A stretch of 64,000 bases of DNA, from assembly GCA_001785865.1 (NCBI GenBank), contig MFUZ01000006.1, positions 111,307 through 175,306 on the forward strand, given 5' to 3'. The notes below the pieces were generated by a model, which worked only from the letters and a program-made list of their open reading frames with translations, was not told the origin of the DNA and searched no databases. The stretch is from Candidatus Nomurabacteria bacterium RIFCSPLOWO2_01_FULL_41_18 (GTDB taxonomy: Bacteria; Patescibacteriota; Minisyncoccia; Phycocordibacterales; UBA9973). Below are positions 2,129 through 58,814 of the stretch, one piece after another. Both the position numbers and the translations under genes were made by a program. How positions within the stretch are numbered: position 1 is the stretch's first letter; each line of letters begins with the position of its first letter.

Positions 2129-3382
2129 ATGACAACAGCAGAAAAAAAATTAGATAAAGTCGAACAAGAACTTGCCCGTCCCGACATCTCGATCATCAAT
2201 CTTTTTGACCAGCTCATCGAAAAAGCTTACGAAGCGCGGGCATCCGATATCCACGTCGATCCCCTGGTAAATTCCGTACGCATCCGCTTTCGAATCGACG
2301 GCGTGCTCACCGAAGCATATTCATTTCCGAAATCTATAAACAATGAGATAATTTCCCGCGTTAAAATATTGTCCCGACTGCGCACCGACGAGCATCAGGC
2401 CACCCAAGACGGCAGATTCCGCTATATTCTTCCCGAGAACGAGAGGAATCAGAATGGAGAAAAAAATAAATTTATAGATTTTCGCGTATCGATCATGCCT
2501 ACCTACCACGGAGAAAATGCTGTGCTTCGCCTTTTGACGGACAAGAACGAGCAATCCTCTCTGGAAGATCTCGGTTTCAGTGAAATTGATAAGAAAAAAA
2601 TAGAGACGGCGATGAAAAAGACTAACGGCATGATCCTTTCGACTGGGCCGACTGGTAGCGGCAAGACCACTACCATGTACACTCTCATCAAGATGTTGAA
2701 ATCTCCGGAAGTTTCGATAATAACCATCGAGGACCCGATCGAATACGCCGTCGAAGACATAGAGCAGATACAGGTCAATGCCCGAGCCGGTCTTACCTTT
2801 GCAAACGGCCTCCGCTCCATTCTCCGCCAGGACCCGAATATCATCATGGTGGGCGAGATCCGTGATACCGAGACGGCGAGCATAGCCGTGAATACAGCGC
2901 TGACTGGACACCTCCTTCTCTCTACCTTGCATACAAACGATGCTGCGACTACCCTGCCTCGCCTTCTAGATATGGGCATCGAGGAATACCTCGTCGCTTC
3001 CACTGTCTCTCTCGCGATCGGACAGCGTCTGGTGAGAAAAATTTGCAGCCACTGCAAGGAAGAAGTGCAGATGACGCATGCGATGAAAGAAGCCCTCGCG
3101 CAGACTTCGTATACGGCGCTCCTCCTCAATGTCGACGTAGTCTACAAAGGAAAGGGCTGTGAAAAATGCAATAATAGTGGATATCGAGGGAGGATCTGTA
3201 TCAACGAAGTTCTAGTGGCGGACAATGAGATACGTGAAGCCATATTGCGCAGAGCTTCCGCCAATGAAATAAAGAAAATAGCCGTCAAAAACGGGATGAC
3301 TACGATGTTCGAAGATGGCTTTCAAAAAGTGAAGGACGGGTTCACAACTGTCGAAGAGGTATTAAGAGTTATTCATGAATAA
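2129..3382 (+). CDS. pilB: Type IV pilus assembly ATPase PilB/GspE family. Short form that lacks the N1 domain.
   Basis: Walker A motif GPTGSGKTTT. Asp/His boxes are present. A tetracysteine motif (CSHCK...CEKCNNSGYRGR) is typical of PilB/GspE rather than PilT. The N-terminus starts at the 'ASDIHV' N2 region. Confidence 0.85.
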   Translation: MTTAEKKLDKVEQELARPDISIINLFDQLIEKAYEARASDIHVDPLVNSVRIRFRIDGVLTEAYSFPKSINNEIISRVKILSRLRTDEHQATQDGRFRYILPENERNQNGEKNKFIDFRVSIMPTYHGENAVLRLLTDKNEQSSLEDLGFSEIDKKKIETAMKKTNGMILSTGPTGSGKTTTMYTLIKMLKSPEVSIITIEDPIEYAVEDIEQIQVNARAGLTFANGLRSILRQDPNIIMVGEIRDTETASIAVNTALTGHLLLSTLHTNDAATTLPRLLDMGIEEYLVASTVSLAIGQRLVRKICSHCKEEVQMTHAMKEALAQTSYTALLLNVDVVYKGKGCEKCNNSGYRGRICINEVLVADNEIREAILRRASANEIKKIAVKNGMTTMFEDGFQKVKDGFTTVEEVLRVIHE

Positions 3383-4907
3383 AAAAATGGCTACAAAAAC
3401 AACGACAATCAAAAAAACTAGAAAGATGTCGGATGTGACCATGCGTCCGCGGAAAAAGAAAACTCCGGAAGTTGCGGAAGTGGAAATAGTAGTAGAACAA
3501 GAAATCACCACCCCGGCTGCTGCCACTCCTCCTCCACAAGGAGGGGAAGAAAAATTGATAAAATTTGAAACCGAAGTTGTAAATCCGGAAACTCCATTAG
3601 AGCCGACGTTCATCAAAGGTGACGAACTGCCTCAAACGGGCCAAGTCGAAGAAATAAAGAAAGAAACAGCGCCAAGCAATAAATTTATAAATAATATCAA
3701 AAGCTTTTCATTTTCCATGCCTGCGCTTCCCTCAATGCCATCCTTTAAGGTCAAGAAATTTTTCACAAATAAAGAGGAGATAGAAAAAATTGCGCCAAAA
3801 GATACAAAAGCGAGACCGGGTAATAGTTTTTTTACTAGCTTAAAGAGCCTTAATTTCACGCGTCTGTCCATAAAGGATCAGACCTTTTTTGTCAAAAGGC
3901 TGTCTTTTCTCATCAAAGCCGGCATACCGATGGGAGAAAGTCTGGTCATGATCCGCACCCAGACCAAGAAACGGGGTTATGCTTCCATCCTTGACTCCGT
4001 AATCTCGAATGTGATGAACGGACAGAGACTCTCCTCGAGCCTCGCCCGTTTCAAGCACATCTTTGGGGATTTCACGATCAATATTATCGAGTTCGGAGAG
4101 GAGTCCGGCATACTTTCTCAAAATTTGGAGTACATAGCCGACGAATTAAAAAAAAGACAGGCTTTGCGCAAGAAAATAATTAGCGCATCTATATATCCGA
4201 TCATAGTCACGATCGCAACCATCGGCATTGTGATATTTCTAATGGTATTTCTTTTCCCGAAAATCATGCCGATATTTACGAGCCTCAAGTATGACCTTCC
4301 GCTCACTACCAGGATGGTCATAGCAATCAGTAATTTCTTCAGCCAATGGGGCCTTCTCACTTTCGGCATTCTTTTTATTCTTGGCGTAGCCTTCATCATC
4401 ACTCTCAAGAAAAGCCCGACTGTTCACTTCTATTTCGACAAGTTCCTTCTCAAATTGCCGGTAATCGGGAAGATCATACGAGACTATAATATGGCAAACT
4501 TCACCCGCACCATGGGCCTCCTGCTGCGAGGTGGCATCTCGATGAGTGAGGCCTTGCCTATCTCGGCGAAGACTACTCCGAATCTTGTCTATAAAAAAGA
4601 ATTTAAGGCACTCGGGGCTGTGGTCTCTCGTGGGGCGGTAATATCCACTCACTTGAACAAGAATCGCCATCTATTCCCTGACTTGGTCTCACAGATAGTT
4701 TCTGTCGGAGAACACAGCGGAAATTTGTCCAACTCCCTCATTTATCTTTCGGAAATGTATGAAGCAGAAATAGATGACTTCACAAAGAATTTATCCAGCA
4801 TGGTAGAGCCAGTCTTAATGATAATCATGGGTATCCTCGTGGGCTTTATAGCCATTTCCATCATCACGCCTATATACGGCATTACTCAGCACCTAAATGT
4901 AAAATAA
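3375..4907 (+). CDS. pilC: Type IV pilus inner-membrane platform protein PilC/GspF. It carries a Pro/Glu/Lys-rich N-terminal extension of about 150 aa.
   Basis: Two T2SSF-like repeats with TM segments follow a low-complexity N-terminus. There is an 8-nt overlap with pilB. Confidence 0.85.
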   Translation: MNKKMATKTTTIKKTRKMSDVTMRPRKKKTPEVAEVEIVVEQEITTPAAATPPPQGGEEKLIKFETEVVNPETPLEPTFIKGDELPQTGQVEEIKKETAPSNKFINNIKSFSFSMPALPSMPSFKVKKFFTNKEEIEKIAPKDTKARPGNSFFTSLKSLNFTRLSIKDQTFFVKRLSFLIKAGIPMGESLVMIRTQTKKRGYASILDSVISNVMNGQRLSSSLARFKHIFGDFTINIIEFGEESGILSQNLEYIADELKKRQALRKKIISASIYPIIVTIATIGIVIFLMVFLFPKIMPIFTSLKYDLPLTTRMVIAISNFFSQWGLLTFGILFILGVAFIITLKKSPTVHFYFDKFLLKLPVIGKIIRDYNMANFTRTMGLLLRGGISMSEALPISAKTTPNLVYKKEFKALGAVVSRGAVISTHLNKNRHLFPDLVSQIVSVGEHSGNLSNSLIYLSEMYEAEIDDFTKNLSSMVEPVLMIIMGILVGFIAISIITPIYGITQHLNVK

Positions 4908-4911
4908 TCAG

Positions 4912-5388
4912 ATGAGTAAACTATTTAAAACAAACCAAGGCATGACTCTCGTAGAAATAATGGTGGTGATCGGAGTGCTGATGATCATCCTCGCTTTTGG
5001 CATGACAGTAAATTTCAACTCATTCACTTCCAGTACTCTGCAGGCCGAGGAAGCGAAGATAGTCAGCGCCCTCGAACGAGCGCGCAGTCATGCGATGGCG
5101 AATATGTTTGAATCGGAATATGGAGTTTGTTATATTTCACCCAACTATGTTATTTTTCGTGAAAGCGAAGGAACTTGCAACAATTCTGAACCAACTAATG
5201 AGCTTATTCCTGCAAATACAAACTTGTCTACGTTATCAAATTTTTCTACAAACTTTGACGATTCCCACGCTATTATTTTCAATCAGCTCTCAGGTAATAG
5301 AAACACAGTAGATGATACAATTATTATTACTGACGGAATAAAGTCAGAGCCCATAGAAATAAACGATACAGGCAGAATCAATTGGTGA
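4912..5388 (+). CDS. Prepilin-type N-terminal cleavage/methylation domain protein (pseudopilin or minor pilin).
   Basis: N-terminal 'KTNQG/MTLVEIMVVIGVLMIIL' is a class III signal with Glu at +5. Confidence 0.6.
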   Translation: MSKLFKTNQGMTLVEIMVVIGVLMIILAFGMTVNFNSFTSSTLQAEEAKIVSALERARSHAMANMFESEYGVCYISPNYVIFRESEGTCNNSEPTNELIPANTNLSTLSNFSTNFDDSHAIIFNQLSGNRNTVDDTIIITDGIKSEPIEINDTGRINW

Positions 5389-5441
5389 AATTTTAATAAA
5401 TTTCACCCTGAGTTTATCGAAGGGTAATAAAAAATGAGGTT

Positions 5442-6953
5442 ATGAAAAATAAAATTAATTTTAAAAAAATGAAATCAAAAAGTGATAAAGGATTTGCGAC
5501 GATAGAGATCGTCATGGCTTTTGCGGTGCTCATTTTGTGTATCAGCGCAGTCGCTATGGTGACCTTCGGCAATCAGACACTTACGATAGATTCCGAGACC
5601 AACAATGAAGCGATTTCAAAAGCTCAAGCATTGATCGAGAAAGCAAGAGCGGATTCGAGAGAGGATTACGTTTCTGTAAATACTATTCCTTCAACTGTTG
5701 AGGATATTTATACAAAGTTTTTAGAAATAACAGATCTTACTCAATGTAATAAACAAGCTAAAAGCACAGTTTCCTGGACTACGGGATCAAGAAATCTTTC
5801 CACCACTCTCTCTACTTTTCTTAGCGACATTCCTGGAGCGCTAGCACTTGGTGGAGACTGTGATTCTGGTATTACTGCGGATTATGATAATCCTGGAGGT
5901 CTAGTAAGTGAATCTATCGGTGGACAAGGCGCTACAGCTTTGGATGCTGTAAATAACCGTCTATATGTGACTTCAAATAAATTTCCCCCCTCTCATAATA
6001 AAGATTTTTTTGTATATGATTTCAGTTTCAGTCCTCCATCGTCTAGCTCCCTTAGTTTAGTTGCTGAACTCGATTTAAATGAGGGCCTAAATGATGTAGA
6101 TGTGGCCGATAATTATGCGTATGTGGCAAGTGACTCACTTACTGGAGAATTACAGGTCATTGATCTTACTACAATGACTCAAATTCCTGGCGCAACCAGA
6201 CAATTACCAGAAACAAATACAGCTAAAGGAAGAAGAATATTTTTCTATGACAATAAAATCTATATAGGAACGGATTATCTATCATGTCCACCTCCATGTA
6301 CTCCGACACAAAACAGTGAATTTCACATTTATGATGTATCTACTCCAAGTGACCCGAATTGGGAAGGGAGTGTGAATATAAACCACAACGTAAATGATAT
6401 TTTTGTGTCAGGAGATTTTGCTTATCTAGCCACTTCTGATAATAATCACGAACTTATGGTTATAAATATTAATCCTTCTAGTCCTGATTATTTGGAACAT
6501 CCGGACGACACAGGTTTTGGTTATAATGCTTCGGGAAACAATGATGGTTCGAGCATTTATGCATTGGGGAATAAAATTTATCTTGGTAGAAAACAAAACA
6601 ATAATCCATCATCTGCTCATGATTTATTCGTGTTAAATAAGGACAGTGTTCAGGATGGGGCAAGCACGACTGACGGTCTCGTGATCTCTAGGGATCTAGG
6701 TATTTCGAATAACTCATTAGTTACTGGTATTGTTGTGCGAAGCAATTTGGCTTTTGTTGGTCTAGATAACCCAACTATCGGGGTTCTTGTTTTGAATATA
6801 AATACTTTACTGCCGTATTCTTCTTGTGCTGGATACAATTTCCCAGAGAATAGTACTGGGATAGATATGAGCGGAAATTTCATATTTACTTCAAACAGAT
6901 CAAATGATGAAATTCAAGTTATATACGATCAACCTTCAGCATGTACTCCATAA
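5442..6953 (+). CDS. Pilin-like protein: a prepilin N-terminus fused to a YVTN/LVIVD-type beta-propeller repeat domain. Putative pilus-associated adhesin.
   Basis: N-terminal 'KG/FATIEIVMAFAVLIL' with E+5. The C-terminal two-thirds contain about seven repeats of the form [N/D]xxY[VLI]xxxD...L.VI[DN] (NRLYVTSN, NYAYVASD..LQVIDL, DFAYLATSD..LMVININ, SNLAFVGLD..VLVLNIN, GNFIFTSN..IQVIY). Confidence 0.55.
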   Translation: MKNKINFKKMKSKSDKGFATIEIVMAFAVLILCISAVAMVTFGNQTLTIDSETNNEAISKAQALIEKARADSREDYVSVNTIPSTVEDIYTKFLEITDLTQCNKQAKSTVSWTTGSRNLSTTLSTFLSDIPGALALGGDCDSGITADYDNPGGLVSESIGGQGATALDAVNNRLYVTSNKFPPSHNKDFFVYDFSFSPPSSSSLSLVAELDLNEGLNDVDVADNYAYVASDSLTGELQVIDLTTMTQIPGATRQLPETNTAKGRRIFFYDNKIYIGTDYLSCPPPCTPTQNSEFHIYDVSTPSDPNWEGSVNINHNVNDIFVSGDFAYLATSDNNHELMVININPSSPDYLEHPDDTGFGYNASGNNDGSSIYALGNKIYLGRKQNNNPSSAHDLFVLNKDSVQDGASTTDGLVISRDLGISNNSLVTGIVVRSNLAFVGLDNPTIGVLVLNINTLLPYSSCAGYNFPENSTGIDMSGNFIFTSNRSNDEIQVIYDQPSACTP

Positions 6954-21553: not shown

Positions 21554-21625
21554 TTATGTGTGCTACAAAGATTTTGTAGATTGTCAACAAAATACACAGA
21601 ATATCAACAACGAAAGGGCAATACA

Positions 21626-22288
21626 GTGAAATCAATAAAAAAACAGCTGACTGGAAGAGAGGTGGTCTTGGGCGCGGCGCATGAACTAATCTTAAGAGAT
21701 GGACTCAAAAGTCTTGACATTAAGGAGTTAGCGGCTCGATCCAAAATGACACGAGCTAATATTTATCTGATCTTTGGATCAGAGCCAAGATCTGTTATTT
21801 ATGAATCCATTATTGGGGAATTTCTTCAGAGAGCGCAGAACTCAATAACTACTGCTCTCATAACAAGTCCGCCCAATTTTAACAATGTTGAAAAACTTGC
21901 TTCTATTCTTCGGGTCACTCTGCATTTTTTTCACGAGAACCCGCAGCCAGGAAAAGTGGTGCTTTTGTGGTTGGATATGAGCCACTCGGCCTATCGACCA
22001 ATCCGGCAGATTTTCAAACACATTGATCATGTCGTCGATCAAGCCATCAAGAAGGATGAAATTATCGTCGGTTTCTCCTCTGTTCAAATACGGCAAATTC
22101 TTTTCGCGGTTATGTATGGATTACTCCGTGCATTTTACCTTGAAGAAGAGCAGATAGGAGTAAGGATTAAAAAGGAGGTAATGCAGACATTTGTCCACCG
22201 AGGAGTACTGCAGGTTCTAAGCGGGTTGTGCTCAGCTCATACTCGTGCTCAGATCGACGAACAAATTAATGCGTTACCAGCATCGTAA
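21626..22288 (+). CDS. TetR/AcrR-family transcriptional regulator. A GTG start at 21626 is proposed because the track start at 21560 falls inside the promoter.
   Basis: N-terminal HTH 'VVLGAAHELILRDGLKSLDIKELAARSKMTRANIYLIFGS'. An AAAGGG RBS lies 8 nt upstream of the GTG. Confidence 0.65.
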   Translation: MKSIKKQLTGREVVLGAAHELILRDGLKSLDIKELAARSKMTRANIYLIFGSEPRSVIYESIIGEFLQRAQNSITTALITSPPNFNNVEKLASILRVTLHFFHENPQPGKVVLLWLDMSHSAYRPIRQIFKHIDHVVDQAIKKDEIIVGFSSVQIRQILFAVMYGLLRAFYLEEEQIGVRIKKEVMQTFVHRGVLQVLSGLCSAHTRAQIDEQINALPAS

Positions 22289-26828: not shown

Positions 26829-28490
26829 CTAATACACTTCTTGCTGATAACATTTTTCACAATAAATTTGATAAATTTTTTGGTCTTCTGGTTTATATGA
26901 CGTTTGTATTTCTTTGTCACACTTAGCGCATTTTCCTTTCCAGAGGTTTCTAGGATTTCTTTTACTCATGCGCGATTCATGTCTGCAGTTAAAACACTCG
27001 GCTGGAAGTGCCAATTTATTTTTCTTATAAAAATTTACCTCTCTATTTATTAATTTAAAATTTTTCTCACAACTTTCACATGTCAGAACTTCTTTGATTA
27101 ATTTATCATTGTAATCTTTCGGATCTTTTGGTAAATCTTTATACTTAATAGTTCCCTGTCCTTTGGTAGCTGGTATGTCATCTTTCCATCTGAAACCTTG
27201 CGCGAGAGCTTCTTCTTTTGTGAGAGGCATGTATTCGTTGACTATTGCTTCATTGTAAGCAAAGGGACTCAGTTCTTTCGGAGGGAACAGTCCCCACTCT
27301 TTGTTCCTGACCATATGTTCAATTAATTTTTGTGTTAGTTTATTGTATTCTTCTTTAATGTACTGTTTATTAAATATACAATAAGCTTTCTTTCTAAGTC
27401 CGTAGCATCCAAATAAATTATTTGAACCATCACAATACTCTGAATAATAAATATCGTGGGAATCAACTATGTTTTGTGAACCAATCACTTTAGTGCCTTT
27501 ATCGATTGTTAAAGACTGGTAACTTTCTTCTAAGTCAGTTGTGAAAGATATGTCGTATGAATCTATGGCTTTTCTTAAAGTAAAACAAAATTTTGAATTT
27601 TCTCCGCTTTTAATATCAAATGAGTGATGTATGTTGTGGGCGTTATAAATATGATTTCCAGAAACATTGTTATTATGAGAGCCGAAAAAAGAGCGTTGAG
27701 GGATTGTTTTACGTAGTTTCTCTCTTTCTTTTAGAATAAAGTCTATGCTAGATTTTTCACTTAATGGGTATTTTAATAAAAACTGTTTGTATTCTTCTCT
27801 GGTAACCTGCTTATTAAAAATGTAATAAGATTTATTGACTTGGCCCACGCACCCAATGCAATTTAAACAATTTCTGCAATCAAAGAGTCCTATTGAGTCT
27901 ACACATGCTTCACTTTCTTGTGAATATAAAAGTTTACTAGACCCCAAACAGTCAATACATTCATAACAAGATTCGCATTTAAAGAGGTATAAGTTGTCTA
28001 GGCAATCTCTACAGTTCCAGATAATATGTCCATAATCACAATCTTCACTATCAACACACCCAAAAGCAAGGTAGCAATTTTTACTGCGAATAATTTGATT
28101 TGAGTATTCACTATTTTCATTCTGCATATTTCTGAGAGATATGTGGGGAATTGCATTTATTAATTTACTTATCTGGCTAAAAAAGGGCTTTTCCCAGTCA
28201 ATATCCATTCCGTATGACATTGGATCCCAATCATCACTCCACCATTCCGAAATGTCATACACAGGAAAAGGCGTATCAGTATCGTAGACTGAAATTATCA
28301 TTTTACCCGACATACTTGAAGGTCTTTTATATAGAGTTTTAAAATTTCTAAAAAGCGTACGCAACTGCTGTCTGCACTCTGGACACTTTTCTGGCGCTGG
28401 TACACCCATCTTTTCATAAAACCCAAAATCATCTGGCTCTATTATGAAATCTTTCTTACAGTTTTGACAATTTTTTGTTTCTTCTTGCAT
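26829..28490 (-). CDS. Cys-rich hypothetical protein (about 40 Cys in CxxC arrangements, with terminal zinc-ribbon pairs) inserted between purQ and purL.
   Basis: N-terminal CQNC...CPEC; a central cluster NCRDCLDNLYLFKCESCYECIDCLG...CRNCLNCIGCVG; C-terminal CESCEKN...CFNCRH and CAKCDKE...CEKCYQQ. Confidence 0.5.
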   Translation of the reverse strand: MQEETKNCQNCKKDFIIEPDDFGFYEKMGVPAPEKCPECRQQLRTLFRNFKTLYKRPSSMSGKMIISVYDTDTPFPVYDISEWWSDDWDPMSYGMDIDWEKPFFSQISKLINAIPHISLRNMQNENSEYSNQIIRSKNCYLAFGCVDSEDCDYGHIIWNCRDCLDNLYLFKCESCYECIDCLGSSKLLYSQESEACVDSIGLFDCRNCLNCIGCVGQVNKSYYIFNKQVTREEYKQFLLKYPLSEKSSIDFILKEREKLRKTIPQRSFFGSHNNNVSGNHIYNAHNIHHSFDIKSGENSKFCFTLRKAIDSYDISFTTDLEESYQSLTIDKGTKVIGSQNIVDSHDIYYSEYCDGSNNLFGCYGLRKKAYCIFNKQYIKEEYNKLTQKLIEHMVRNKEWGLFPPKELSPFAYNEAIVNEYMPLTKEEALAQGFRWKDDIPATKGQGTIKYKDLPKDPKDYNDKLIKEVLTCESCEKNFKLINREVNFYKKNKLALPAECFNCRHESRMSKRNPRNLWKGKCAKCDKEIQTSYKPEDQKIYQIYCEKCYQQEVY

Positions 28491-37214: not shown

Positions 37215-37757
37215 ATGAAATTTATTTTTGATTTTGACGATGTGTTGTTCCATAACACAAAATTATTTAAAGAGCATATGTACACATCCTTGAAACAGGC
37301 TGGTATATCTCGCGTTGTTGCAGAGGAATATTATAAAACAGTACGAAAAAACCAATTTTGGTTAAAGGAACTGTTGACACACTTTTCTCTTAAGGAAAGC
37401 CTGTATGGAGAAATATTAAAAGAAAGTAAAAATTTTATAAATAAAGAGTTACTATCTGTATTAAAAGAATTAGGAAAAGAAAATTGTTATATAGTAACTC
37501 ATGGAAATAAAGAATTTCAAAATAACAAAATAAAAATATCAGGCATTACTCCCCTATTTTCTGAAATTATTGTGGTGCAAGTTAGCAAAAAAAAAGCAGT
37601 AGAAAAAATATGCGCTAAGCATAAAGACGAACAAGTGATATTTATTGATGACAAGGTAAAACATTTTGAGGATCTAGATTTTAAGAAATATCCAAACCTA
37701 AAAACAATTCTGTATGATGAGCAAGGGCTTGAGAAGCTAAAAACTATTTTACCATAG
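37215..37757 (+). CDS. HAD-superfamily hydrolase.
   Basis: The N-terminal FDFDDVL sequence is HAD motif I (DxD). Confidence 0.6.
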   Translation: MKFIFDFDDVLFHNTKLFKEHMYTSLKQAGISRVVAEEYYKTVRKNQFWLKELLTHFSLKESLYGEILKESKNFINKELLSVLKELGKENCYIVTHGNKEFQNNKIKISGITPLFSEIIVVQVSKKKAVEKICAKHKDEQVIFIDDKVKHFEDLDFKKYPNLKTILYDEQGLEKLKTILP

Positions 37758-38832
37758 TCGAAAGTACCGGCTCTGTGTCTACTTGTACGACATTAAACCT
37801 TAGTCGTCCGATGATTTTGCCTTCTTCTGTCTTGACGTTTACTCGCCACCTGCCGAATGCCACATTTGTGCGGACGGAATAAGTGCGAAAACCTCCATCA
37901 CGGCCTCCTACCACAGGCAGCCTGATTACACTTTCGGTGATCCATTTCTTCTGTGCTCGATCATAGTACTGCCACTCATGAAGAACGGAGATGTTTAGAT
38001 TTTCGGGAGAAAAGACGGCGCTATATGCGTAGACTCCTGCCCCGGCTTGTTTGCTAAAACTCGGATAGAAGCTGAAGTAGCCTGCGAGGCCATGATCCTC
38101 GTAGGTGACTTCGTAATTCCCTTTCGCATTTTTTTCTATGGAATGATAGATCCCTCCATCTTTAAGCGAGAGCGGAATAGGCGGAATAAGATTAGTAAAA
38201 TAGAGGAAATTTACCAAGAAAAATATGCTCGTGATCAAAGCCACCAGCAATTTCTTGCTTTTTACAAACTTATCCTTTATGAGATGGAATAAAAGGATGA
38301 TAAAAAGTACGATCGCAATCAAGGAGAGTACGCCCGACAGCAAAAACACTAAAGTGCCGATCTTGTGCAAAAGCACAGGCACGACAAAGATCGCAAAAGA
38401 ATAAATAGATAAAAAGAAGAGGCTGATCTGGAAACTTAAGCGGACGTAATGCTTCTTCAAAAACTCATTTGCAATAAAAGTCGCAGCGAGGAGCGCGACA
38501 AACGGCCAGGCCACGAATATGTCCGCGCTCCTAAAGTATAAGATCAGATATGCGGAAAAAATTCCTCCGAAAGCGAACTGCAGTATGTTGACATACCAGA
38601 AATGAGCCTTGCTCGGGTTTTCCTCGCCACCTACTTCATTTTCTTTTAGATGGATCAAGATGATAAAGACTCCGATCAGGATGAGGTATATTGAAATAAT
38701 GATATTCTCAAAAATGGTATCTACACGCTTTAATGTGAAGGCGTCAAAAATAAATCCAAAAAGAAGAAAAAAGGATGAAATTTTTCTCTCAAAACGAGCA
38801 TAAAAGTCCTTGACAGGTCCTATAAAGTGCAT
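37744..38832 (-). CDS. Polytopic membrane protein with a C-terminal extracytoplasmic beta-rich domain. Hypothetical.
   Basis: About 7 TM helices followed by a soluble domain of about 130 aa. Confidence 0.5.
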   Translation of the reverse strand: MHFIGPVKDFYARFERKISSFFLLFGFIFDAFTLKRVDTIFENIIISIYLILIGVFIILIHLKENEVGGEENPSKAHFWYVNILQFAFGGIFSAYLILYFRSADIFVAWPFVALLAATFIANEFLKKHYVRLSFQISLFFLSIYSFAIFVVPVLLHKIGTLVFLLSGVLSLIAIVLFIILLFHLIKDKFVKSKKLLVALITSIFFLVNFLYFTNLIPPIPLSLKDGGIYHSIEKNAKGNYEVTYEDHGLAGYFSFYPSFSKQAGAGVYAYSAVFSPENLNISVLHEWQYYDRAQKKWITESVIRLPVVGGRDGGFRTYSVRTNVAFGRWRVNVKTEEGKIIGRLRFNVVQVDTEPVLSTMVK

Positions 38833-38864
38833 AATTCATTATACCAGATTTTGATCTGCCAATA

Positions 38865-39146
38865 CTATTGCGGTTCGTTTTTTTCGTCTTTGCGGGCAAG
38901 GACTCGAGTGAGGTAAACGGAAAAAACCACAACAATTATACTGATCACGAGCGCATAGATAAATTTTGCCAAAACGCTGTCTCTGCCGAGAGGCAGAAGA
39001 TATTCAATGAGCGCTTTTACCGCGTCATTCCAGGCCAGGCCAGCCACAAGACCGAGCCCGCCCACTACGAAGCTCATAGTACGCTCGCGAAATTCGCGGT
39101 TCAAGTTCTTTGTTTCTTCTTTTATGCGATCTAAAGTTGGAGTCAT
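38865..39146 (-). CDS. Small hypothetical membrane protein.
   Basis: Two TM helices, co-oriented with its neighbours. It is preferred over the overlapping plus-strand ORF 38868-39134. Confidence 0.4.
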   Translation of the reverse strand: MTPTLDRIKEETKNLNREFRERTMSFVVGGLGLVAGLAWNDAVKALIEYLLPLGRDSVLAKFIYALVISIIVVVFSVYLTRVLARKDEKNEPQ

Positions 39147-39149
39147 AAA

Positions 39150-42100
39150 TTATTTAGAAAAATATGCAAACGCCGCTAAAATGGAAGCAATCGAACCGAT
39201 ACCGAATTCGCTCTGCTCAACAATTGCGCTCAAGTCAAAATATCTTCTCAGGATGGGATACGCATCCTGCTCGATGGACGGATAAACATTATTATTGTTT
39301 TGTATAGTGGCAGCATAATCATTACCATTTGAAGCATGATAGCTAGGGCCAAAGACTGGAATACCCGGAACCGGTAAGGTGGCTCCACTGTTCTGTCTGA
39401 GCCAAATAGAAGTAAGATGAAGAGGATTCTTTGGAGGCATGGATCCGATGCCGGTAATATAGCTCTGATTTTGCGGATTTGCTCCGAGCTCGACATCAAA
39501 ATTTATTTTCGCCGCTTCAAGATATTTCTCATCACCAAGAATTATATTTGCAAGGATAAGATGAAAAGACCGAGAAGCGCTGTGAGCAAATTGGCCCCAG
39601 CTGATATACGAAGGCACATCCAGACGATATCCGACACGGTAAGGGTTGCTATATGTCCAATTATATTCTTCATCAGCTAGGCTTCTGTATTCGCTCTTAA
39701 TATTTGTCACTATGGCAGGATCAGTCGGATATTTTGTCGTCAGATAAGCAAACGAAGCCTGGGAATTGTGATATACGAAATTATTATAAATATTGTAAAA
39801 CGGGGAAGTTTGCTGCCAATATGTCTTGAATGCCTGTGCGTACTCAACGTTTCCTGTTGCTTTATACAGTTCAGCCGCCGCCCAAGCCCGATTATCAACA
39901 TCAGAATATGGGCAGGTAGAGCCGGGCACTTGATTATCGGAGCAATTAGAAAGAGCCTTGTCTTGATAATCTCCGCCACCAATCCCTAATTTTCTGACAT
40001 CAATTCCGTTTGCCGGCAGTGGCGTCGGGTGCTTATTGAGAAAATCCCAAGCCTTGACTGCTTTCACTAAAAGATTGTCTGCATATCCGGGATACTTCGT
40101 CTCGAAGGTGGCATTTTTTTTAAAGACTTGGGAAGCCTGCGCTAGAACCGCCGCATAGACTGCCGTGGTGTGAGTGGACACTGGCGCGAGATACCTAGTT
40201 TGGATATCGTAAGGGCTCTTTTCCCACTGCTGTGAGGTAAGTCGATCGAATACTCCGCCATCTTTGGTCTGCATTTTTTGAAACCAGTCGATTTCATATT
40301 TGATTTCATCAAGAATATCGGGAATACCATTATTTTTTTCAGGAATATCCGCTTGATTGTCACTGAATTTCTGTGGATACAGCTCATATGCGAGCAGTAA
40401 TTCATTTACCGGCGCCGAAGCTGGTAAGATATATTTTCCATAGTCACCGGCATCGTACCATCCGCCAGTCATATCAAACTTCGTCCCGAGTGGATAATCT
40501 ATTTTCGATACCGGAAGCGGATTATCGGTGCTCAATACATAGACGCTCGGATGGAGAACTGCCGCTCGGTCGCTCGAGAGAGTCCCTGCCGGACGCGACC
40601 ACTCTCCATAATTAATCGGAACATCCGCGCGTGCGGCATAGTAGAAATTCATAAGTTTTTTGGTCACGTCCTTAAATATGTCTGAACCGATTTTGAACGA
40701 ATATGATCGTCCGAAGCCTGGAACAGATACATAGTAAGATCCGGCCGATGTTATAGTCGAAAAATCACAGTTATAAATAATGTTTCCACTGCGCGAAATA
40801 TCGTTCGCTCTAAATAGCGCTGGAAATTCTGCAACAAGGGTATTCGAGGCGGCATTCATTACCTTACATTTTGCTGGCACACCAGTAAGTGAACCCGCAT
40901 CTCCGATGTAATTCCCGATGTATGCGAATTTTGGCGATGCTGGCAGATAGCCGACTTGATTTACCTGAACCGAACCTGTGATGACAGCATCGGAGTAAGT
41001 GAATGGTAGTATTTTAGGGGTAGAAAAATTATTACCGAAAAGATCGGGAATATTTTTGACTGTCAGCGTATAATTGCGCCCCTCTACCAGCGGGGTATCG
41101 AAGACCAGGTACAGATTTGATTCGAAAGTGGGAGCCTTGGCTAAACCATACGATCCTCCAGTCGAAGCCTCGAAGCCATTCACATGGAATTCTCGGCCTA
41201 TTTGCACTGGTGATCGGCCTGAAGAAAAATTTGAGTCCCCGCTTCCCGTCAAAACATAGTTGGAAGCATTCACTACTCCATTTATATCATAGCGATCCTT
41301 GGTGGTAAGTTTTATAACTTTATTTGAAATCGGTTGGAGATTTAATACAGTGTTAGGACTTGTTTTTATAGCATATATATCATCAATTTGAAATGAATAT
41401 GTGGGTGTAACTCCTGAGGCGGAGCTAAACCATAAATTCTCCATACTCGAAAGATCAAAACCGCCTGAGACTTTTAGCGCACTTACAGGAATGCGAAGCA
41501 TGCGATAAGAAGCTCCTAGTGTGCCACCGCCTGTAATATAGTCTTCCATTTTGACTGAAGCACTGGTGTTGGGCCATCCATATATAAGAAAACGGCCAGT
41601 GGGAATTGCCGGTAGTGTCGTTCCGGGATTTGGAACAACTTTTACCATCATTTGGATAAAATCATACTGTGCTAAACTTTTTCTGTACGCTGTCGGAAGA
41701 TTTGCTAAACTCAAATTACCTGCATTGTATTGACTAGGTGTTGCTTTCAATGAATACGTGCCAGAACTTGCTCCTTCTGAAACAACAGTTCCATATGTAA
41801 TTCCTGTCGAACGTTCAATAGCAGATTCTCCAGTCCAAATTTTTAATTGTTTTTCTAAATCAATTCTAATGGGATCAGGCGGTATTGGAGGAGTTATTAT
41901 AATTGAAGGAGGAACTATTACAACAGGAGGCACAACGACCACAGGAGGAGTAACGACTACAGGTGGTGTAATGACGACAGGAGGCGGAGGAGGGACAGTC
42001 GCTCCTGTAGGATGAAAAACAATATCATCTACATAATAGACTGAATTTGACTTACTTAATGAAAATCGCATACCATCAACTTTTGACAAATTCCAAGATG

Positions 42101-43139
42101 TAGTTTTTAAAGCGCTTACTGGAATCGTAACTTGTTTCCAATTTGTATTTAGAGTGCCACCTTGGATATAAGAATTTAAATTTACAGTGGAACTTTCTGC
42201 ATAGCCACTATTCCCTGCCCATGTCCAAAATGTGACCGTAACAGGATCTGTATTTGCTGTCGCACTTCGAATCATAAATGTTAGAGTCTCATAAAGTCCG
42301 AGATCTGTACGCTGACGATTGCCACAGTAAATTTTTAGCGAAGGAGTATGCCAAGGATCTGGTGTGAGTTTGAGTGAGGGTGAATCATTTATGCCTTGAT
42401 TACTAACTTGGGCTAAATATTCAGAACAGGATGATGAAAGAGGAGAAGAACTGCCATTAAAAATAGTCAATGTGGACGTGGGGGTAGTAGGTACTACGAC
42501 AGGAGGAGTAACGGCTTGTTCAATTTTGGGTTGGAAAATAATGTTGTCTATATAATAAATAGAATTGGAGGCACTTACAGAAAAACTGACAGCATCGGCA
42601 TTGGAAAGATCCCAAGAAGATATTTTTAAAGCGGATATTGGTATGGTTACTTGCTTCCAATCAGTACCAATTGAACCACCTTGAATATATTCATTGATGG
42701 AGACAGTTTTGCTATTTGCGTAACCATTTGGTCCAGCAAATGTCCAGAACGAGACATTTAGAGGGTCTGTGGTTGCCGTGGCACTTCGTATCATAAAAGT
42801 AAAATTCTCATATGCACCGAGATCTTTTCGTGGATTGTTCATACAATAAACTTTGAGCACTGGGGCATGCCACTTGTCTGGAATCAATTTAAGGCTGGTG
42901 GAGCCATTTACACCAGTTCCCTGTTCTTGTGTTGCATATTCGTAACACGAAGGACTTGGTGCAGGATTTGCATCTCCATCAAATAAAGTAAATGGAATCT
43001 GTGCAACCGAGGCTGTATAAGGAGAGCCATCTTTGAACCCTATATTATTCATTAATTTTGTATTAGTTATAACAACAAGAAAAATGAGAATAATAATTAT
43101 TATTCCGAAAGCAATATAGTATCGTAAATTTTTTTTCAT
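39150..43139 (-). CDS. Large secreted multi-domain glycoside hydrolase, GH9-like. Architecture is a signal anchor, then two tandem modules of about 170 aa, a Pro/Val-rich linker, a third module, an Ig-like domain, and a C-terminal (alpha/alpha)6 catalytic domain.
   Basis: N-terminal MKKNLRYYIAFGIIIIILIFLVV. Two roughly 50% identical repeats (…LKLIPDKWHAPVLKVYC… and …LKLTPDPWHTPSLKIYC…). A PPVV linker. A GH9 hallmark 'FDMTGGWYDAGDYGKY' and C-terminal acidic catalytic motifs. Confidence 0.8.
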   Translation of the reverse strand: MKKNLRYYIAFGIIIIILIFLVVITNTKLMNNIGFKDGSPYTASVAQIPFTLFDGDANPAPSPSCYEYATQEQGTGVNGSTSLKLIPDKWHAPVLKVYCMNNPRKDLGAYENFTFMIRSATATTDPLNVSFWTFAGPNGYANSKTVSINEYIQGGSIGTDWKQVTIPISALKISSWDLSNADAVSFSVSASNSIYYIDNIIFQPKIEQAVTPPVVVPTTPTSTLTIFNGSSSPLSSSCSEYLAQVSNQGINDSPSLKLTPDPWHTPSLKIYCGNRQRTDLGLYETLTFMIRSATANTDPVTVTFWTWAGNSGYAESSTVNLNSYIQGGTLNTNWKQVTIPVSALKTTSWNLSKVDGMRFSLSKSNSVYYVDDIVFHPTGATVPPPPPVVITPPVVVTPPVVVVPPVVIVPPSIIITPPIPPDPIRIDLEKQLKIWTGESAIERSTGITYGTVVSEGASSGTYSLKATPSQYNAGNLSLANLPTAYRKSLAQYDFIQMMVKVVPNPGTTLPAIPTGRFLIYGWPNTSASVKMEDYITGGGTLGASYRMLRIPVSALKVSGGFDLSSMENLWFSSASGVTPTYSFQIDDIYAIKTSPNTVLNLQPISNKVIKLTTKDRYDINGVVNASNYVLTGSGDSNFSSGRSPVQIGREFHVNGFEASTGGSYGLAKAPTFESNLYLVFDTPLVEGRNYTLTVKNIPDLFGNNFSTPKILPFTYSDAVITGSVQVNQVGYLPASPKFAYIGNYIGDAGSLTGVPAKCKVMNAASNTLVAEFPALFRANDISRSGNIIYNCDFSTITSAGSYYVSVPGFGRSYSFKIGSDIFKDVTKKLMNFYYAARADVPINYGEWSRPAGTLSSDRAAVLHPSVYVLSTDNPLPVSKIDYPLGTKFDMTGGWYDAGDYGKYILPASAPVNELLLAYELYPQKFSDNQADIPEKNNGIPDILDEIKYEIDWFQKMQTKDGGVFDRLTSQQWEKSPYDIQTRYLAPVSTHTTAVYAAVLAQASQVFKKNATFETKYPGYADNLLVKAVKAWDFLNKHPTPLPANGIDVRKLGIGGGDYQDKALSNCSDNQVPGSTCPYSDVDNRAWAAAELYKATGNVEYAQAFKTYWQQTSPFYNIYNNFVYHNSQASFAYLTTKYPTDPAIVTNIKSEYRSLADEEYNWTYSNPYRVGYRLDVPSYISWGQFAHSASRSFHLILANIILGDEKYLEAAKINFDVELGANPQNQSYITGIGSMPPKNPLHLTSIWLRQNSGATLPVPGIPVFGPSYHASNGNDYAATIQNNNNVYPSIEQDAYPILRRYFDLSAIVEQSEFGIGSIASILAAFAYFSK
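41880..41995. repeat. In-frame tandem DNA repeats encoding the (T/V)PPVV linker of the GH9-like protein.
   Basis: Repeated ggaggNacNacNacagg units were seen directly in the sequence. Confidence 0.5.
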
Positions 43140-43427: not shown

Positions 43428-43862
43428 TTACATCTCCACTATCACCGTCACTGTGATGATGCCGATTATTGGGTATCTCTGCCAAAAATCAGAACTTAAC
43501 TTCTCTACAGCTGTGAAGCGTCCTTCAATGCGAACATCTTGATCCATGGGTGTGGTAGAAATCTGGTCAGGCATGTCGCCTCCATCGAGTGCATAATAAA
43601 CTCCGTCATTTGTTCTAAAACCGAATGCACATTCTAATGTCTGTGGACCGTCTGGGTTTGTGTGTGGCAAGCATACGATTCTACCCTCTTTGGTTATAGC
43701 TGGAGATCCATCATCAATAATCATTTCAAAAGTACCTCCTTGCTCATCATTACTTTCCACTAAGTCATCTGGTTTTGGACTTTCTGCTGTTTTAGAAGCA
43801 TAGACACTTATCCCTATAACAATTAATATACCAACTAAAGCTAATATGTATTGTTTTTTCAT
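43428..43862 (-). CDS. Hypothetical secreted or membrane-anchored protein.
   Basis: N-terminal signal/TM MKKQYILALVGILIVIGISVYA. Confidence 0.4.
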   Translation of the reverse strand: MKKQYILALVGILIVIGISVYASKTAESPKPDDLVESNDEQGGTFEMIIDDGSPAITKEGRIVCLPHTNPDGPQTLECAFGFRTNDGVYYALDGGDMPDQISTTPMDQDVRIEGRFTAVEKLSSDFWQRYPIIGIITVTVIVEM

Positions 43863-43874
43863 AAATTTATTATA

Positions 43875-44624
43875 TCAGATTTTAATTCCATAAAACTTAA
43901 GTGCCTCTTCTATGGTTTGGGGAAAGCTTTTCTTTAGTTTTTCTGGAATTTGACCATCTCTTTCACTTCTTTCCACAGCCTCTTTTATTAAATCCCAAGT
44001 AAATTCAGATCTTTGTTTATCTGGATCAGAAGCCAATTTCCTTAAAAATATATCTCTGTATTTTTTTACTGCATTACCTATACTTAATGTGAAATATGAA
44101 TTCAGACGAACATCAGCACTAACACTTGCCCCTTTATCTTCCCAAGTATGAGACATCATTCTGTAATTAACAGCATCTTGAATTGAATCACTATCTATAG
44201 GGCCTACAAAAACGTGCTCTGTGAGTGTTTCTTTTAGGTTTAATTTATCTTTAACTTTATTCAATTTTTCTATAAAAATTTCCTTCAGTAATTTTTCAAA
44301 AAGATAGACATTTAAATCCTCAATTCCAAATTTCTTACCAAGTTTCAATATCGTTTCTTCTGGAAGAGCTCGGAATTCTTCTATATCAAATCTTAATTTG
44401 CAATCAATGTCAGTTTCCAAAGCAGTCTCGTGAGTCAATTCTTTTCCTTTCACTAATGAACCAAAAACGGAAATTGAAATAGGTAAAGGGAGTTGAGCTT
44501 GTAATTCATGACAAATATCTCTTAGAGCCTCAATACGCCTTCTCGAAAATTCATCTTTTGATATTTCGTAACGTTTATTGTGCGATGCAACATATGGAAT
44601 TTTGTTCGTGATTCTTTCTGTCAT
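43875..44624 (-). CDS. Pol-beta-superfamily nucleotidyltransferase-like protein (ANT/KNTase-like pattern).
   Basis: 'SVFGSLVKGKELTHETALETDIDCKL' matches the hG[GS]...[DE]h[DE]h NTase signature. Compare GVYGSLGRQTDGPYSDIEMMCV in ANT(4'). Confidence 0.4.
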   Translation of the reverse strand: MTERITNKIPYVASHNKRYEISKDEFSRRRIEALRDICHELQAQLPLPISISVFGSLVKGKELTHETALETDIDCKLRFDIEEFRALPEETILKLGKKFGIEDLNVYLFEKLLKEIFIEKLNKVKDKLNLKETLTEHVFVGPIDSDSIQDAVNYRMMSHTWEDKGASVSADVRLNSYFTLSIGNAVKKYRDIFLRKLASDPDKQRSEFTWDLIKEAVERSERDGQIPEKLKKSFPQTIEEALKFYGIKI

Positions 44625-57173: not shown

Positions 57174-57248
57174 CAAAAGCCTGCCCCGTACTGAGCTCTG
57201 CTCTAGTACGGGGTTATCCACATCCGCCAAAGGCGGACAAGCTTGCAT

Positions 57249-57266
57249 TATCTCATATATGAGATA
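57249..57266. promoter_or_regulatory. Perfect 18-bp palindrome (TATCTCATATATGAGATA). Candidate operator for the downstream HTH-MurA protein.
   Basis: Seen directly in the sequence. It ends 13 nt upstream of the proposed ATG at 57279 and overlaps a TATAT -10-like element. Confidence 0.4.
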
Positions 57267-57278
57267 TACTATGGAAAT

Positions 57279-58814
57279 ATGAAAAAAACGTCAACAAAGG
57301 AAACAGAGACCGAGCAGGAAAAGATCGGCTTTTTTATAAAAGAGCTTCGTGAACATCGTGGGATGACGCAGGAACAGTTTGCTAAAGCACTCAATACTTC
57401 TCAAAGCTCAATCCCCCGTATGGAAAAGGGTGAGCAAAATTTTACTACGGAATTACTTCTTAAAATAAGTAACGTTCTAGACCACAAAATAGTTTCTTTA
57501 AATGATTCAATTGATTTTGAAGTCACTGGAGGAAAAAAATTAAGCGGAACCATAAAAACCAATTTTTCAAAAAACGGCTCAGTTGGACTTTTGTGCGCTT
57601 CGCTTGTAAATAGCGGAGTGACAACATTGCACGGCATTGCTCGCATTGAAGAAGTGTATAGAGTAATTGAAATTCTGGAAAGTATCGGAGTCGTTGTTAA
57701 ATGGCTTAACCAAAACACTCTCACAATTACTCCTCCTAAAAAATTTAGTTTGGACAATGTAAATACAGAATCTGCGATTAAAACTCGCTCAGTTATTATG
57801 CTTGTCGGACCTCTTATTCACAAATTGTCAGCTTTCATCATTCCTCACCCCCACGGATGCAACCTTGGTAAACGCACTATTGCAGCACATATTTTTGCAT
57901 TAGAAAAACTCGGGGTAAAAATAAAAACCACAGCAAAAAATTACGATGTTTCTGCAAGAAAACTCAAACCGGGATACATAGTAATGTATGAATCCGGAGA
58001 TACTGCTTGCGAAAATGTTTTAATGGCTTCTGCCCTGATTCATGGCGTGACAAGAATAAGTTTTGCTAGTGCAAATTATATGGTGCAAGAAGTTTGTTTT
58101 TTCCTTGAGGCTTTGGGTGTGAAAATAGAAGGAATCGGCACTTGCAACCTCACTGTTCATGGAGTAAAAGAAATAAACAAAGACATAGAATATTGGAACA
58201 GCGAAGACCCGATAGAATCCATGATGTTTATTTCTGCGGGAATTATTACTGACTCAAAACTCACCATAACTAGAGCTCCTATAGATTTCTTGGCTCTGGA
58301 ATTGGAAAAACTAAAGAGAATGAATTTAAAATATAAAATTTCAAAAGTTTATAATTCATTCAACGGCCGAACTAGACTCACTGATATAGAAATTTTCCCA
58401 AGCAAACTGAAAGCGTTAAAAGACAAACTTCATTCAAATCCTTATCCGGGAATAAATATAGACAATTTGCCATTTTTTGTACCGATTGCCATCCGGGCCA
58501 AAGGACAAACGATGGTTCATGATTGGGTATATGAAAACCGAGCCATATATTTGACCGAATTAAATCGCCTAGGAGCGGACATAACCCTCGCAGACCCTCA
58601 TCGTCTCTATATTACAGGCGGTACTCCCCTAAAAGGAGCCCAAATCGTCTGCCCTCCTGCGTTGCGACCATCTATGGTTATTCTTATTTCAATGCTTGGT
58701 GCTAGTGGCACATCAATACTCCGAAATGTCTATATGATAAATCGAGGCTATGAAGAAATTGTAGAAAGATTAAATTCCATCGGCGCGGATATTAAAATAA
58801 TAAAGGGGAATTAA
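57279..58814 (+). CDS. murA: XRE-family HTH domain fused to UDP-N-acetylglucosamine 1-carboxyvinyltransferase (MurA). The start is set at MKKTSTKE.
   Basis: The N-terminal about 70 aa, 'IGFFIKELREHRGMTQEQFAKALNTSQSSIPRMEKGEQNFTTELLLKISNVL', form a Cro/C1-type HTH. The rest aligns end-to-end with MurA (…FEVTGGKKLSGTIK…, active-site Cys in PHPHGCNLGKR, …RGYEEIVERLNSIGADIKI…). Confidence 0.7.
   Translation: MKKTSTKETETEQEKIGFFIKELREHRGMTQEQFAKALNTSQSSIPRMEKGEQNFTTELLLKISNVLDHKIVSLNDSIDFEVTGGKKLSGTIKTNFSKNGSVGLLCASLVNSGVTTLHGIARIEEVYRVIEILESIGVVVKWLNQNTLTITPPKKFSLDNVNTESAIKTRSVIMLVGPLIHKLSAFIIPHPHGCNLGKRTIAAHIFALEKLGVKIKTTAKNYDVSARKLKPGYIVMYESGDTACENVLMASALIHGVTRISFASANYMVQEVCFFLEALGVKIEGIGTCNLTVHGVKEINKDIEYWNSEDPIESMMFISAGIITDSKLTITRAPIDFLALELEKLKRMNLKYKISKVYNSFNGRTRLTDIEIFPSKLKALKDKLHSNPYPGINIDNLPFFVPIAIRAKGQTMVHDWVYENRAIYLTELNRLGADITLADPHRLYITGGTPLKGAQIVCPPALRPSMVILISMLGASGTSILRNVYMINRGYEEIVERLNSIGADIKIIKGN

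Follow-up and report, generated by a model that had tools for sequence, protein, structure and literature searches.

A well-known enzyme architecture, found in CelJ, CenC and CbhA/CelK, combines N-terminal type-B carbohydrate-binding modules (CBMs), an immunoglobulin (Ig)-like domain and a catalytic domain of glycoside hydrolase family 9 (GH9). The N-terminal part of CelJ (Cel9D-Cel44A) from Clostridium thermocellum consists of CBM30, an Ig-like domain and GH9. CenC of Cellulomonas fimi (two CBM4, Ig, GH9) and CbhA/CelK of C. thermocellum (CBM4, Ig, GH9) belong to the 'theme D' GH9 enzymes. CBM30 and CBM11 relatives bind xyloglucan, mixed-linkage glucans and cellulose chains. In this study, a gene of comparable design was analyzed in a 64,000-nucleotide stretch of contig MFUZ01000006.1 (the window) from Candidatus Nomurabacteria bacterium RIFCSPLOWO2_01_FULL_41_18. 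The host is a metagenome-assembled genome of the Parcubacteria, within the Candidate Phyla Radiation (CPR). It represents a groundwater bacterium, and the RIFCSP prefix and the ANAN16-1 label of a re-assembly point to the Rifle aquifer study. The minus-strand open reading frame (ORF) 39150..43139 has an ATG start and encodes 1329 amino acids (aa). Judging from its sequence, the product of this gene in the Candidatus Nomurabacteria cell is likely an inverting endo-beta-1,4-glucanase of family GH9 that is located at the cell surface and probably tethered to the membrane. Non-crystalline beta-glucans would be its most likely substrate, with the exact specificity uncertain.

The assignment to GH9 is based on homology. 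Residues 822-1282 matched Glyco_hydro_9 (PF00759) with 215 bits (E 3e-63, cut-off 27.7). When the full-length protein was searched against the PDB, 3x17 (E 1e-65), 6dht (E 7.5e-49) and 1clc (CelD, E 6.8e-46) were retrieved, and ten GH9 structures were matched at E<1e-20. The gene and the features of its catalytic part are listed below in window coordinates.

39150..43139, minus strand: whole ORF, multimodular GH9 enzyme (ORF listing; the end coordinate 39150 includes the stop codon)
39153..40679, minus strand: GH9 catalytic domain, aa 821-1329 (Pfam PF00759)
40443..40454, minus strand: DAGD motif with Asp896 and Asp899, the catalytic base pair (from alignments)
39207..39209, minus strand: Glu1311, predicted catalytic acid, where QSEF replaces the canonical NEV/NEI (from alignments)
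39414..39422, minus strand: Leu1240-His1241-Leu1242 at the canonical His-His-Arg position (from alignment to CelD)

Two of the recognized GH9 motifs are Y/HDAGD and NEVA, the latter with the glutamate that acts as proton donor (PMC9820247). The DAGD motif was found in the stretch FDMTGGWYDAGDYGKY at aa 888-903 (W894-Y-D896-A-G-D899). Asp896 and Asp899 align with the DAGD of CelD, 3x17, BoGH9A and 45 canonical Ig-GH9 proteins, which were drawn from Bacillota and Bacteroidota genomes. In separate alignments, Glu1311 shares a column with the NE(V/I) glutamate of protein P0002 and of the 45 canonical proteins. The region reads Y1300-F-D1302...S-E1311-F-G, and the columns of the Glu and of Asp1302 coincide with the canonical YxD...NE(V/I). 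The motif around Glu1311 is divergent (SEFG vs NEVA), and the local alignments of HMMER and Pfam stop short of this residue. In an alignment of the clade to which the protein belongs (described below), conservation among aligned residues was 67/69 for the first Asp of DAGD, 69/69 for the second and 62/62 for the Glu. Since these three catalytic carboxylates are kept while the His-His-Arg (HHR) box is altered, the enzyme is very probably active, and the subsite beside the scissile bond would be remodelled. A first-pass annotation, made from the DNA sequence alone, had proposed a 1329-aa GH9 protein with a DAGD motif and had named the loss of GH9 catalytic residues as the point to be checked. 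The ORF, the motif and the Pfam assignment were confirmed, and Asp896, Asp899 and Glu1311 are all present and invariant or nearly so in the clade.

Seven features lie ahead of the catalytic domain. The module borders were obtained from pairwise BLASTP and from a profile built from the modules.

43059..43139, minus strand: putative export/anchor segment at the N-terminus (aa 1-27), consisting of MKKNLR and the hydrophobic stretch YYIAFGIIIIILIFLVVI
42522..43019, minus strand: module M1, aa 41-206, CBM30/CBM11-like beta-sandwich
42003..42500, minus strand: module M2, aa 214-379, tandem duplicate of M1
41877..42002, minus strand: Pro/Val-rich linker ATVPPPPPVVITPPVVVTPPVVVVPPVVIVPPSIIITPPIPP, aa 380-421, 42 residues (direct sequence reading)
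41358..41876, minus strand: module M3, aa 422-594, same family as M1/M2, the 'core' copy, in relatives always adjacent to module X
40986..41357, minus strand: module M4/X, aa 595-718, about 125 aa, SbsC-type S-layer Ig-like domain between M3 and CelD_N
40680..40985, minus strand: CelD_N Ig-like domain, aa 719-820 (Pfam PF02927)

M1 and M2 are 58-62% identical (BLASTP, E 1e-66), and their DNA is 67% identical over 344 nucleotides. M3 is related to them at 27-31% identity (E 2e-11 and 2e-9). M3 shares 50-51% identity with the X-adjacent module of the relatives P0032 and P0018, indicating orthology; for M1 and M2, similarity is to the additional modules of P0018 (41% identity). On these comparisons, M1 and M2 are additions to a core cassette, placed upstream of the core copy in the window protein and in its relative P0001. 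Identity between M1 and M2 within one protein is 58% here and 67% in P0001, and positional orthologues of the two proteins are 55-60% identical (regions compared: window 42003-43019 and L005 1278-2303). Because paralogues within a protein are as similar as, or more similar than, positional orthologues, gene conversion or independent duplication is suggested.

An AlphaFold2 model of M1 is a beta-sandwich, with a predicted local distance difference test (pLDDT) score of 80.4 and a predicted template modelling (pTM) score of 0.80. Comparison of the model with known folds (Foldseek) ranked CBM30 first (E 1e-7, TM 0.68-0.75), followed by CBM11, and the model thus agrees with the CBM30 beta-sandwich fold; two independent fold searches concur on the nearest relatives of M1. 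With Pfam, the whole protein reached CBM30 (PF21582) at 27.1 bits, a borderline score given the cut-off of 27.0, and the alignment covers only aa 144-189 (model positions 110-154). Profiles gave a similar picture. A six-module profile matched only CBM30 in the PDB (E 9e-4), and a 30-member profile matched CBM30 (E 2.9e-4) and CBM11 (E 5e-3), with nothing else below E 0.9. Five of the 30 members reached CBM30 in Pfam at E<0.01 and two of the 30 reached CBM_11.

The module family was revealed by an exhaustive HMMER search rather than by word-index searches. With M1 alone or with the six-module profile, the word-index search gave nothing besides P0005, a fragment of the protein itself; with the full-length query it gave four matches, swamped by the low-complexity PPVV linker. 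The exhaustive search with the six-module profile yielded 322 representative clusters (50% identity) at E<=1e-3, including 115 at E<=1e-10. Conserved motifs of the family are PDxWHxP, YIxGG, DTxW(R/K)xVxIP and YIDDI, and these are candidate ligand-cleft residues. The modules form a sister group of CBM30/CBM11, and their divergence prevents a confident assignment to a family. That they bind beta-glucan is a deduction from this relationship and from how closely they are associated with GH9.

Two Ig-like domains separate the modules from the catalytic domain. M4/X had no Pfam match; its fold is similar to the Ig-like domains of SbsC/SbsA-type S-layer proteins. It was located directly downstream of a CBM-like module in 54 of 151 sequences (local jackhmmer), the 151 being 149 listed matches of the HMMER module search plus the window protein and P0001. 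CelD_N (PF02927) was matched at aa 723-809 (48.4 bits, E 1.6e-12), immediately upstream of GH9. The first-pass annotation had correctly placed an Ig-like domain ahead of the catalytic domain. Its (T/V)PPVV linker corresponds to the Pro/Val linker at aa 380-421, and a second, shorter one (AVTPPVVVPTTPTST) is present at aa 209-223. It had also described three N-terminal modules of about 170 aa, two of them duplicates, that matched no carbohydrate-binding family recognizable by eye. Three homologous copies of about 165 aa, with M1 and M2 as duplicates, bear out the first part of this description; the fourth module at aa 595-718 had been missed, and the predicted fold and the profiles identify the three copies as CBM30/CBM11-like beta-sandwiches.

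The hydrophobic stretch at the N-terminus is 19-20 residues long and averages 2.93 on the Kyte-Doolittle scale over the 19 residues from aa 7 to 25, and no AXA-type site was seen near it in the sequence. Based on these two properties, the N-terminus probably resembles an uncleaved signal-anchor more than a classical cleaved signal peptide. The earlier proposal of a secreted protein with a signal peptide therefore holds for the hydrophobic export segment, the cleavage appearing less probable. Long hydrophobic N-termini were also observed in close Parcubacteria-type relatives; in distant clade members the signal peptides are short and, by eye, of a Bacteroidota-like type.

A mechanism can be proposed from this arrangement. 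The N-terminal hydrophobic segment would direct export through the Sec system and would probably be retained as a membrane anchor. The three CBM-like modules, with their predicted fold, may bind single chains of non-crystalline beta-glucan, candidate ligands being amorphous cellulose, mixed-linkage glucan and xyloglucan, and the presence of three copies would provide avidity. Spacing, and support of the catalytic domain, may be provided by the Pro/Val linkers and the two Ig-like domains (SbsC-type X and CelD_N). Cleavage of the glycosidic bond would fall to the (alpha/alpha)6 GH9 domain, with Glu1311 as general acid and Asp899/Asp896 activating water; the residues are assigned by alignment and the chemistry is taken from established GH9 knowledge. 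Released oligosaccharides could enter the fermentative metabolism of the cell or of its partners.

The domain order is not restricted to this genome. A GH9 domain was detected in 67 of the 151 module-bearing sequences, and the full order of CBM-like modules (1-4 copies), X, CelD_N and GH9 in 40. In a Pfam census of 43 module-search matches, GH9 was present in 21 and CelD_N in 17. A tree of the Ig+GH9 region (Kimura distance, neighbour joining) split 23 cassette proteins from the 45 canonical Ig-GH9 proteins with bootstrap 100/100, and the window protein grouped with P0001, P0032, P0018 and P0054. Over X-Ig-GH9, identity to the window protein is 74% for P0001, 64% for P0032, 58% for P0018, 50% for P0054 and 40% for P0043. 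NCBI names P0032 as Candidatus Taylorbacteria (MDB5259445.1) and P0043 as Candidatus Paceibacterota (MFA6253988.1); the two closest named relatives are thus also Parcubacteria. Relatives in the databases have already been annotated automatically as GH9. A scan of genome contigs with the single window protein gave no match. When the clade alignment was used (patterns GW[YH]DAGDY and WA[ANL]AELYK), the matches listed were all canonical Bacillota and Bacteroidota GH9 proteins at 27-32% identity, and these served as the canonical comparison set. On this sequence evidence, the cassette proteins form a distinct, coherent and uncharacterized GH9 clade. A different repeated module of about 170 aa (...WNWIASNPAPVSG...WEHRAYWGAN...) was observed at both termini of P0003 and P0004, GH9 proteins of 1575-1614 aa with the active-site motif GGHHDAGDYSKY; this is another uncharacterized module family attached to GH9.

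Several observations weigh against the proposed membrane-tethered endoglucanase. PF00759 was aligned to model positions 1-416 of 444 only, so the C-terminal active-site region is divergent, and the nearest characterized enzymes (3x17, 6dht and CelD) are only about 30% identical (by eye from the alignments). The isolated modules fall below the Pfam CBM30 threshold (15.7 and 14.4 bits, with no match for M3). No sugar transporter, beta-glucosidase, phosphorylase or other carbohydrate-active enzyme adjoins the gene, and P0001, an orthologue of 66% identity, has a different gene neighbourhood. The PHHRPS box is replaced by P1239-L1240-H1241-L1242-T-S, and the HHR signature is absent. In the HMMER alignment, residue 506 of the 1clc chain aligns to Leu1240. 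We take this residue to be His516 of CelD, assuming an offset of +10 between the chain numbering of DAGD (D188/D191) and that of the literature (D198/D201). The first position of the box is Leu in 50 of 62 aligned clade residues, indicating a clade-wide change, and all box variants listed for the 45 canonical Ig-GH9 proteins are PHHR except one (PYHQ). An HHRPSV box was present in every GH9 enzyme aligned in PMC9820247, where it was implicated in substrate binding and in contact with the Ig domain. The box is a conserved signature and not a family-defining one: membership in GH9 stands, and the protein is atypical. Its loss could lower activity or shift specificity.

A shift in specificity is the basis of the most probable alternative. 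The protein may be an active GH9 enzyme whose replacement of HHR adapts it to a different polymer with beta linkages, possibly supplied by a host or partner. Candidates are xyloglucan, mixed-linkage glucan, chitosan or glucosamine oligomers, a xanthan-like backbone and a bacterial exopolysaccharide. The change from HHR to LHL, shared across the clade as Leu at the first box position, and the clean split of the clade from canonical Ig-GH9 proteins both fit this proposal, as do the second-best PDB match, the xyloglucan-specific 6dht, and the binding of xyloglucan and mixed-linkage glucan by CBM30/CBM11 relatives. However, nothing specific points to any one of these substrates, and the best PDB match (3x17) was deposited as an endoglucanase. 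The GH9 xanthanase 6fhj was matched at aa 785-969 only (E 2.5e-11), and no GH9 glucosaminidase was found among the PDB matches. We therefore regard a non-cellulosic specificity as possible but rather unlikely. The earlier label 'chitosanase-class' has no support. A more far-reaching proposal combines a clade with a GH9 specificity not yet described, a CPR enzyme acting on glucan or exopolysaccharide of a host or partner (attachment or feeding in episymbiosis), and modules that constitute a new CBM family; we consider this combination distinctly doubtful. It had also been suggested from the sequence that the enzyme acts on the cell wall of a host or partner. This idea is pure speculation: GH9 substrates are of the beta-1,4-glucan type and not peptidoglycan, and the neighbourhood contains no pointers to host interaction. 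It persists solely within the doubtful combination just described.

It is also conceivable that the protein is a catalytically dead, lectin-like surface adhesin, in which the GH9 fold and the modules only bind glycans, for instance for attachment to a partner. His516 of CelD and the next Arg have no counterpart in the alignment, the NEVA motif is divergent (SEFG), and four non-catalytic modules, one of them S-layer-like, together with a membrane anchor give an adhesin-like layout. The three carboxylates nevertheless show little or no variation in the clade, even where identity falls to about 28%, and such conservation in a divergent clade is what selection for catalysis would be expected to produce. 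The inactive homologue was rejected as the main explanation on this ground and appears very unlikely. An exo-acting cellobiohydrolase of the CbhA/CelK type is the least probable alternative and hardly credible. It is favoured by a partial match to the CelK equivalog model of NCBIfam, by P0032's source name ('Cellulose 1,4-beta-cellobiosidase') and by the PDB matches to CbhA (1ut9/1rq5, E 4e-36). The NCBIfam match reaches 143 bits where 1700 are required, however; CelK-type identity was rejected on this score, which also leaves the name of P0032 unsupported. That name is an automatic transfer and not experimental, and CbhA ranked below three endo-acting enzymes in the PDB search.

The likely endoglucanase bears on the biology of its host. 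CPR bacteria are thought to be partner-dependent and to possess few enzymes for polymer breakdown. A surface glucanase of 1329 residues takes a noticeable share of a small genome, which suggests direct harvest of beta-glucan by this Nomurabacteria lineage. For research on carbohydrate-active enzymes, the locus adds a coherent GH9 clade (40 full-cassette representatives) without the HHR box and a sister family to CBM30/CBM11. The subsite architecture and substrate preference probably differ from those of textbook cellulases because the clade has lost this box. The protein varies a familiar design in an unusual way and introduces no new biological principle. Glycoside hydrolases have been profiled across >2000 CPR genomes, and in part of the table for that study's own bins the GH9 row is zero (PMC5581439). 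From this portion of the survey, GH9 appears rare in CPR, though not unheard of. The first-pass annotation had considered a large cellulase unexpected in a genome that looks reduced; reduction is right in kind for a CPR bacterium, but the surprise was overstated in view of the CPR glycoside hydrolase profiles (PMC5581439) and of the near-complete purine cluster in the window. In groundwater incubations, amendment with cellulose correlated with 31 CPR amplicon sequence variants, mostly Saccharimonadia and Parcubacteria (PMC12577380). Such a correlation would fit a role in nutrition. No paper pairing Nomurabacteria with GH9 was found in the literature search.

An identical protein was found on 12 independent metagenome contigs, the largest of 313 kb; the same neighbours surround the GH9 gene at four places inspected, and eight further similar places were recorded. 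An assembly artefact is thus excluded. The GC content of the gene is 0.418 and that of its third codon positions (GC3) 0.339, values also spanned by the genes around it (window GC3 0.21-0.55). Its composition is native-like, and comparison of GC3 with the window range gave no compositional sign of recent horizontal transfer. Proteins encoded nearby (seryl-tRNA synthetase, topoisomerase I, GlmS and three hypothetical proteins) correspond by exact sequence match to GenBank OGI68515-OGI68529. One gene follows the GH9 gene closely.

38865..39146, minus strand: DUF5654 membrane protein gene, 93 aa, starting 3 nucleotides past the GH9 stop codon

This gene is followed on the same strand by one for a 362-aa multi-pass DUF2914 membrane protein (both within window 37744-39146). 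The GH9, DUF5654 and DUF2914 genes may form an operon and be co-transcribed. The DUF5654/DUF2914 arrangement is not conserved beside the orthologue P0001 (L005/L006). Scans for promoters and terminators around the GH9 gene gave matches fewer than or equal to those in shuffled sequence. Upstream of the GH9 gene, two small genes are located on the same strand (window 43428-44624). One product (144 aa) has a hydrophobic segment at its N-terminus and matches DUF5818 weakly, and the other (249 aa) has no Pfam match; both are GenBank hypothetical proteins, A2738_01420 and A2738_01415.

Other parts of the window were also inspected. An almost complete cluster for de novo purine biosynthesis with GMP/AMP branches (Pfam) is located at 11005-31503. 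It includes PurB, a major facilitator superfamily transporter, PurC, an AIRS-like protein, GuaA, GuaB, PurA, PurD, PurF, a PurQ-like GATase_5 protein and a 988-aa PurL, as well as two ORFs without a Pfam match (553 aa, 26829-28490; 242 aa, 21560-22288). Descriptions of CPR genomes usually note an absence of nucleotide biosynthesis, which makes the cluster notable. The region 2129-6953 encodes T2SSE (a type II/IV secretion ATPase) and the platform protein T2SSF, with the gene for a 503-aa LVIVD-repeat protein coming next, and is probably a type IV pilus locus. Attachment or DNA uptake has been proposed as the role of such loci in CPR bacteria. A penicillin-binding protein and RelA/SpoT are encoded as well. 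At 57243-58814, a 523-aa protein combines an N-terminal HTH_3 domain (aa 32-80) with a full-length EPSP-synthase/MurA-type domain, an unusual fusion.

Among known systems, CelJ shares with the window protein the order of an N-terminal beta-sandwich CBM, a CelD_N-type Ig-like domain and GH9, and CBM30, together with CBM11, is the only PDB sequence match of the modules. Unlike CelJ, which has one CBM copy in this position, the window protein has three CBM-like copies and an extra SbsC-type Ig domain between the CBM and the Ig-like domain. It has no dockerin, GH44 or CBM44, its putative membrane anchor takes the place of cellulosome attachment, and the HHR box is lost. CenC, CbhA and CelK are similar in that one or two tandem N-terminal type-B CBMs, which bind single glucan chains, precede an Ig-like domain and GH9. 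These enzymes are secreted or cellulosomal, come from dedicated cellulolytic bacteria and keep canonical active-site boxes, in contrast to the window protein. The best matches of the Ig and GH9 part are 3X17, a metagenome-derived GH9 endoglucanase, and 6DHT, the xyloglucanase BoGH9A of Bacteroides ovatus. Both share the Ig-like and (alpha/alpha)6 layout and the DAGD motif. Their identity is about 30% (by eye), both read PHHR at the position of PLHL in the window protein, and their alignments end before the region of the C-terminal catalytic Glu. Their chains (559 and 569 residues, aligned from residue 11-15) are too short for N-terminal CBM-like or X modules. P0032 and P0043 have the same cassette, a PLH-type motif and the catalytic residues, and members of their clade carry between one and four CBM-like modules. 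What distinguishes the window protein is the set of a divergent three-copy CBM30/CBM11-like family, an extra S-layer-type Ig domain, HHR loss, a probable membrane anchor and a CPR host.

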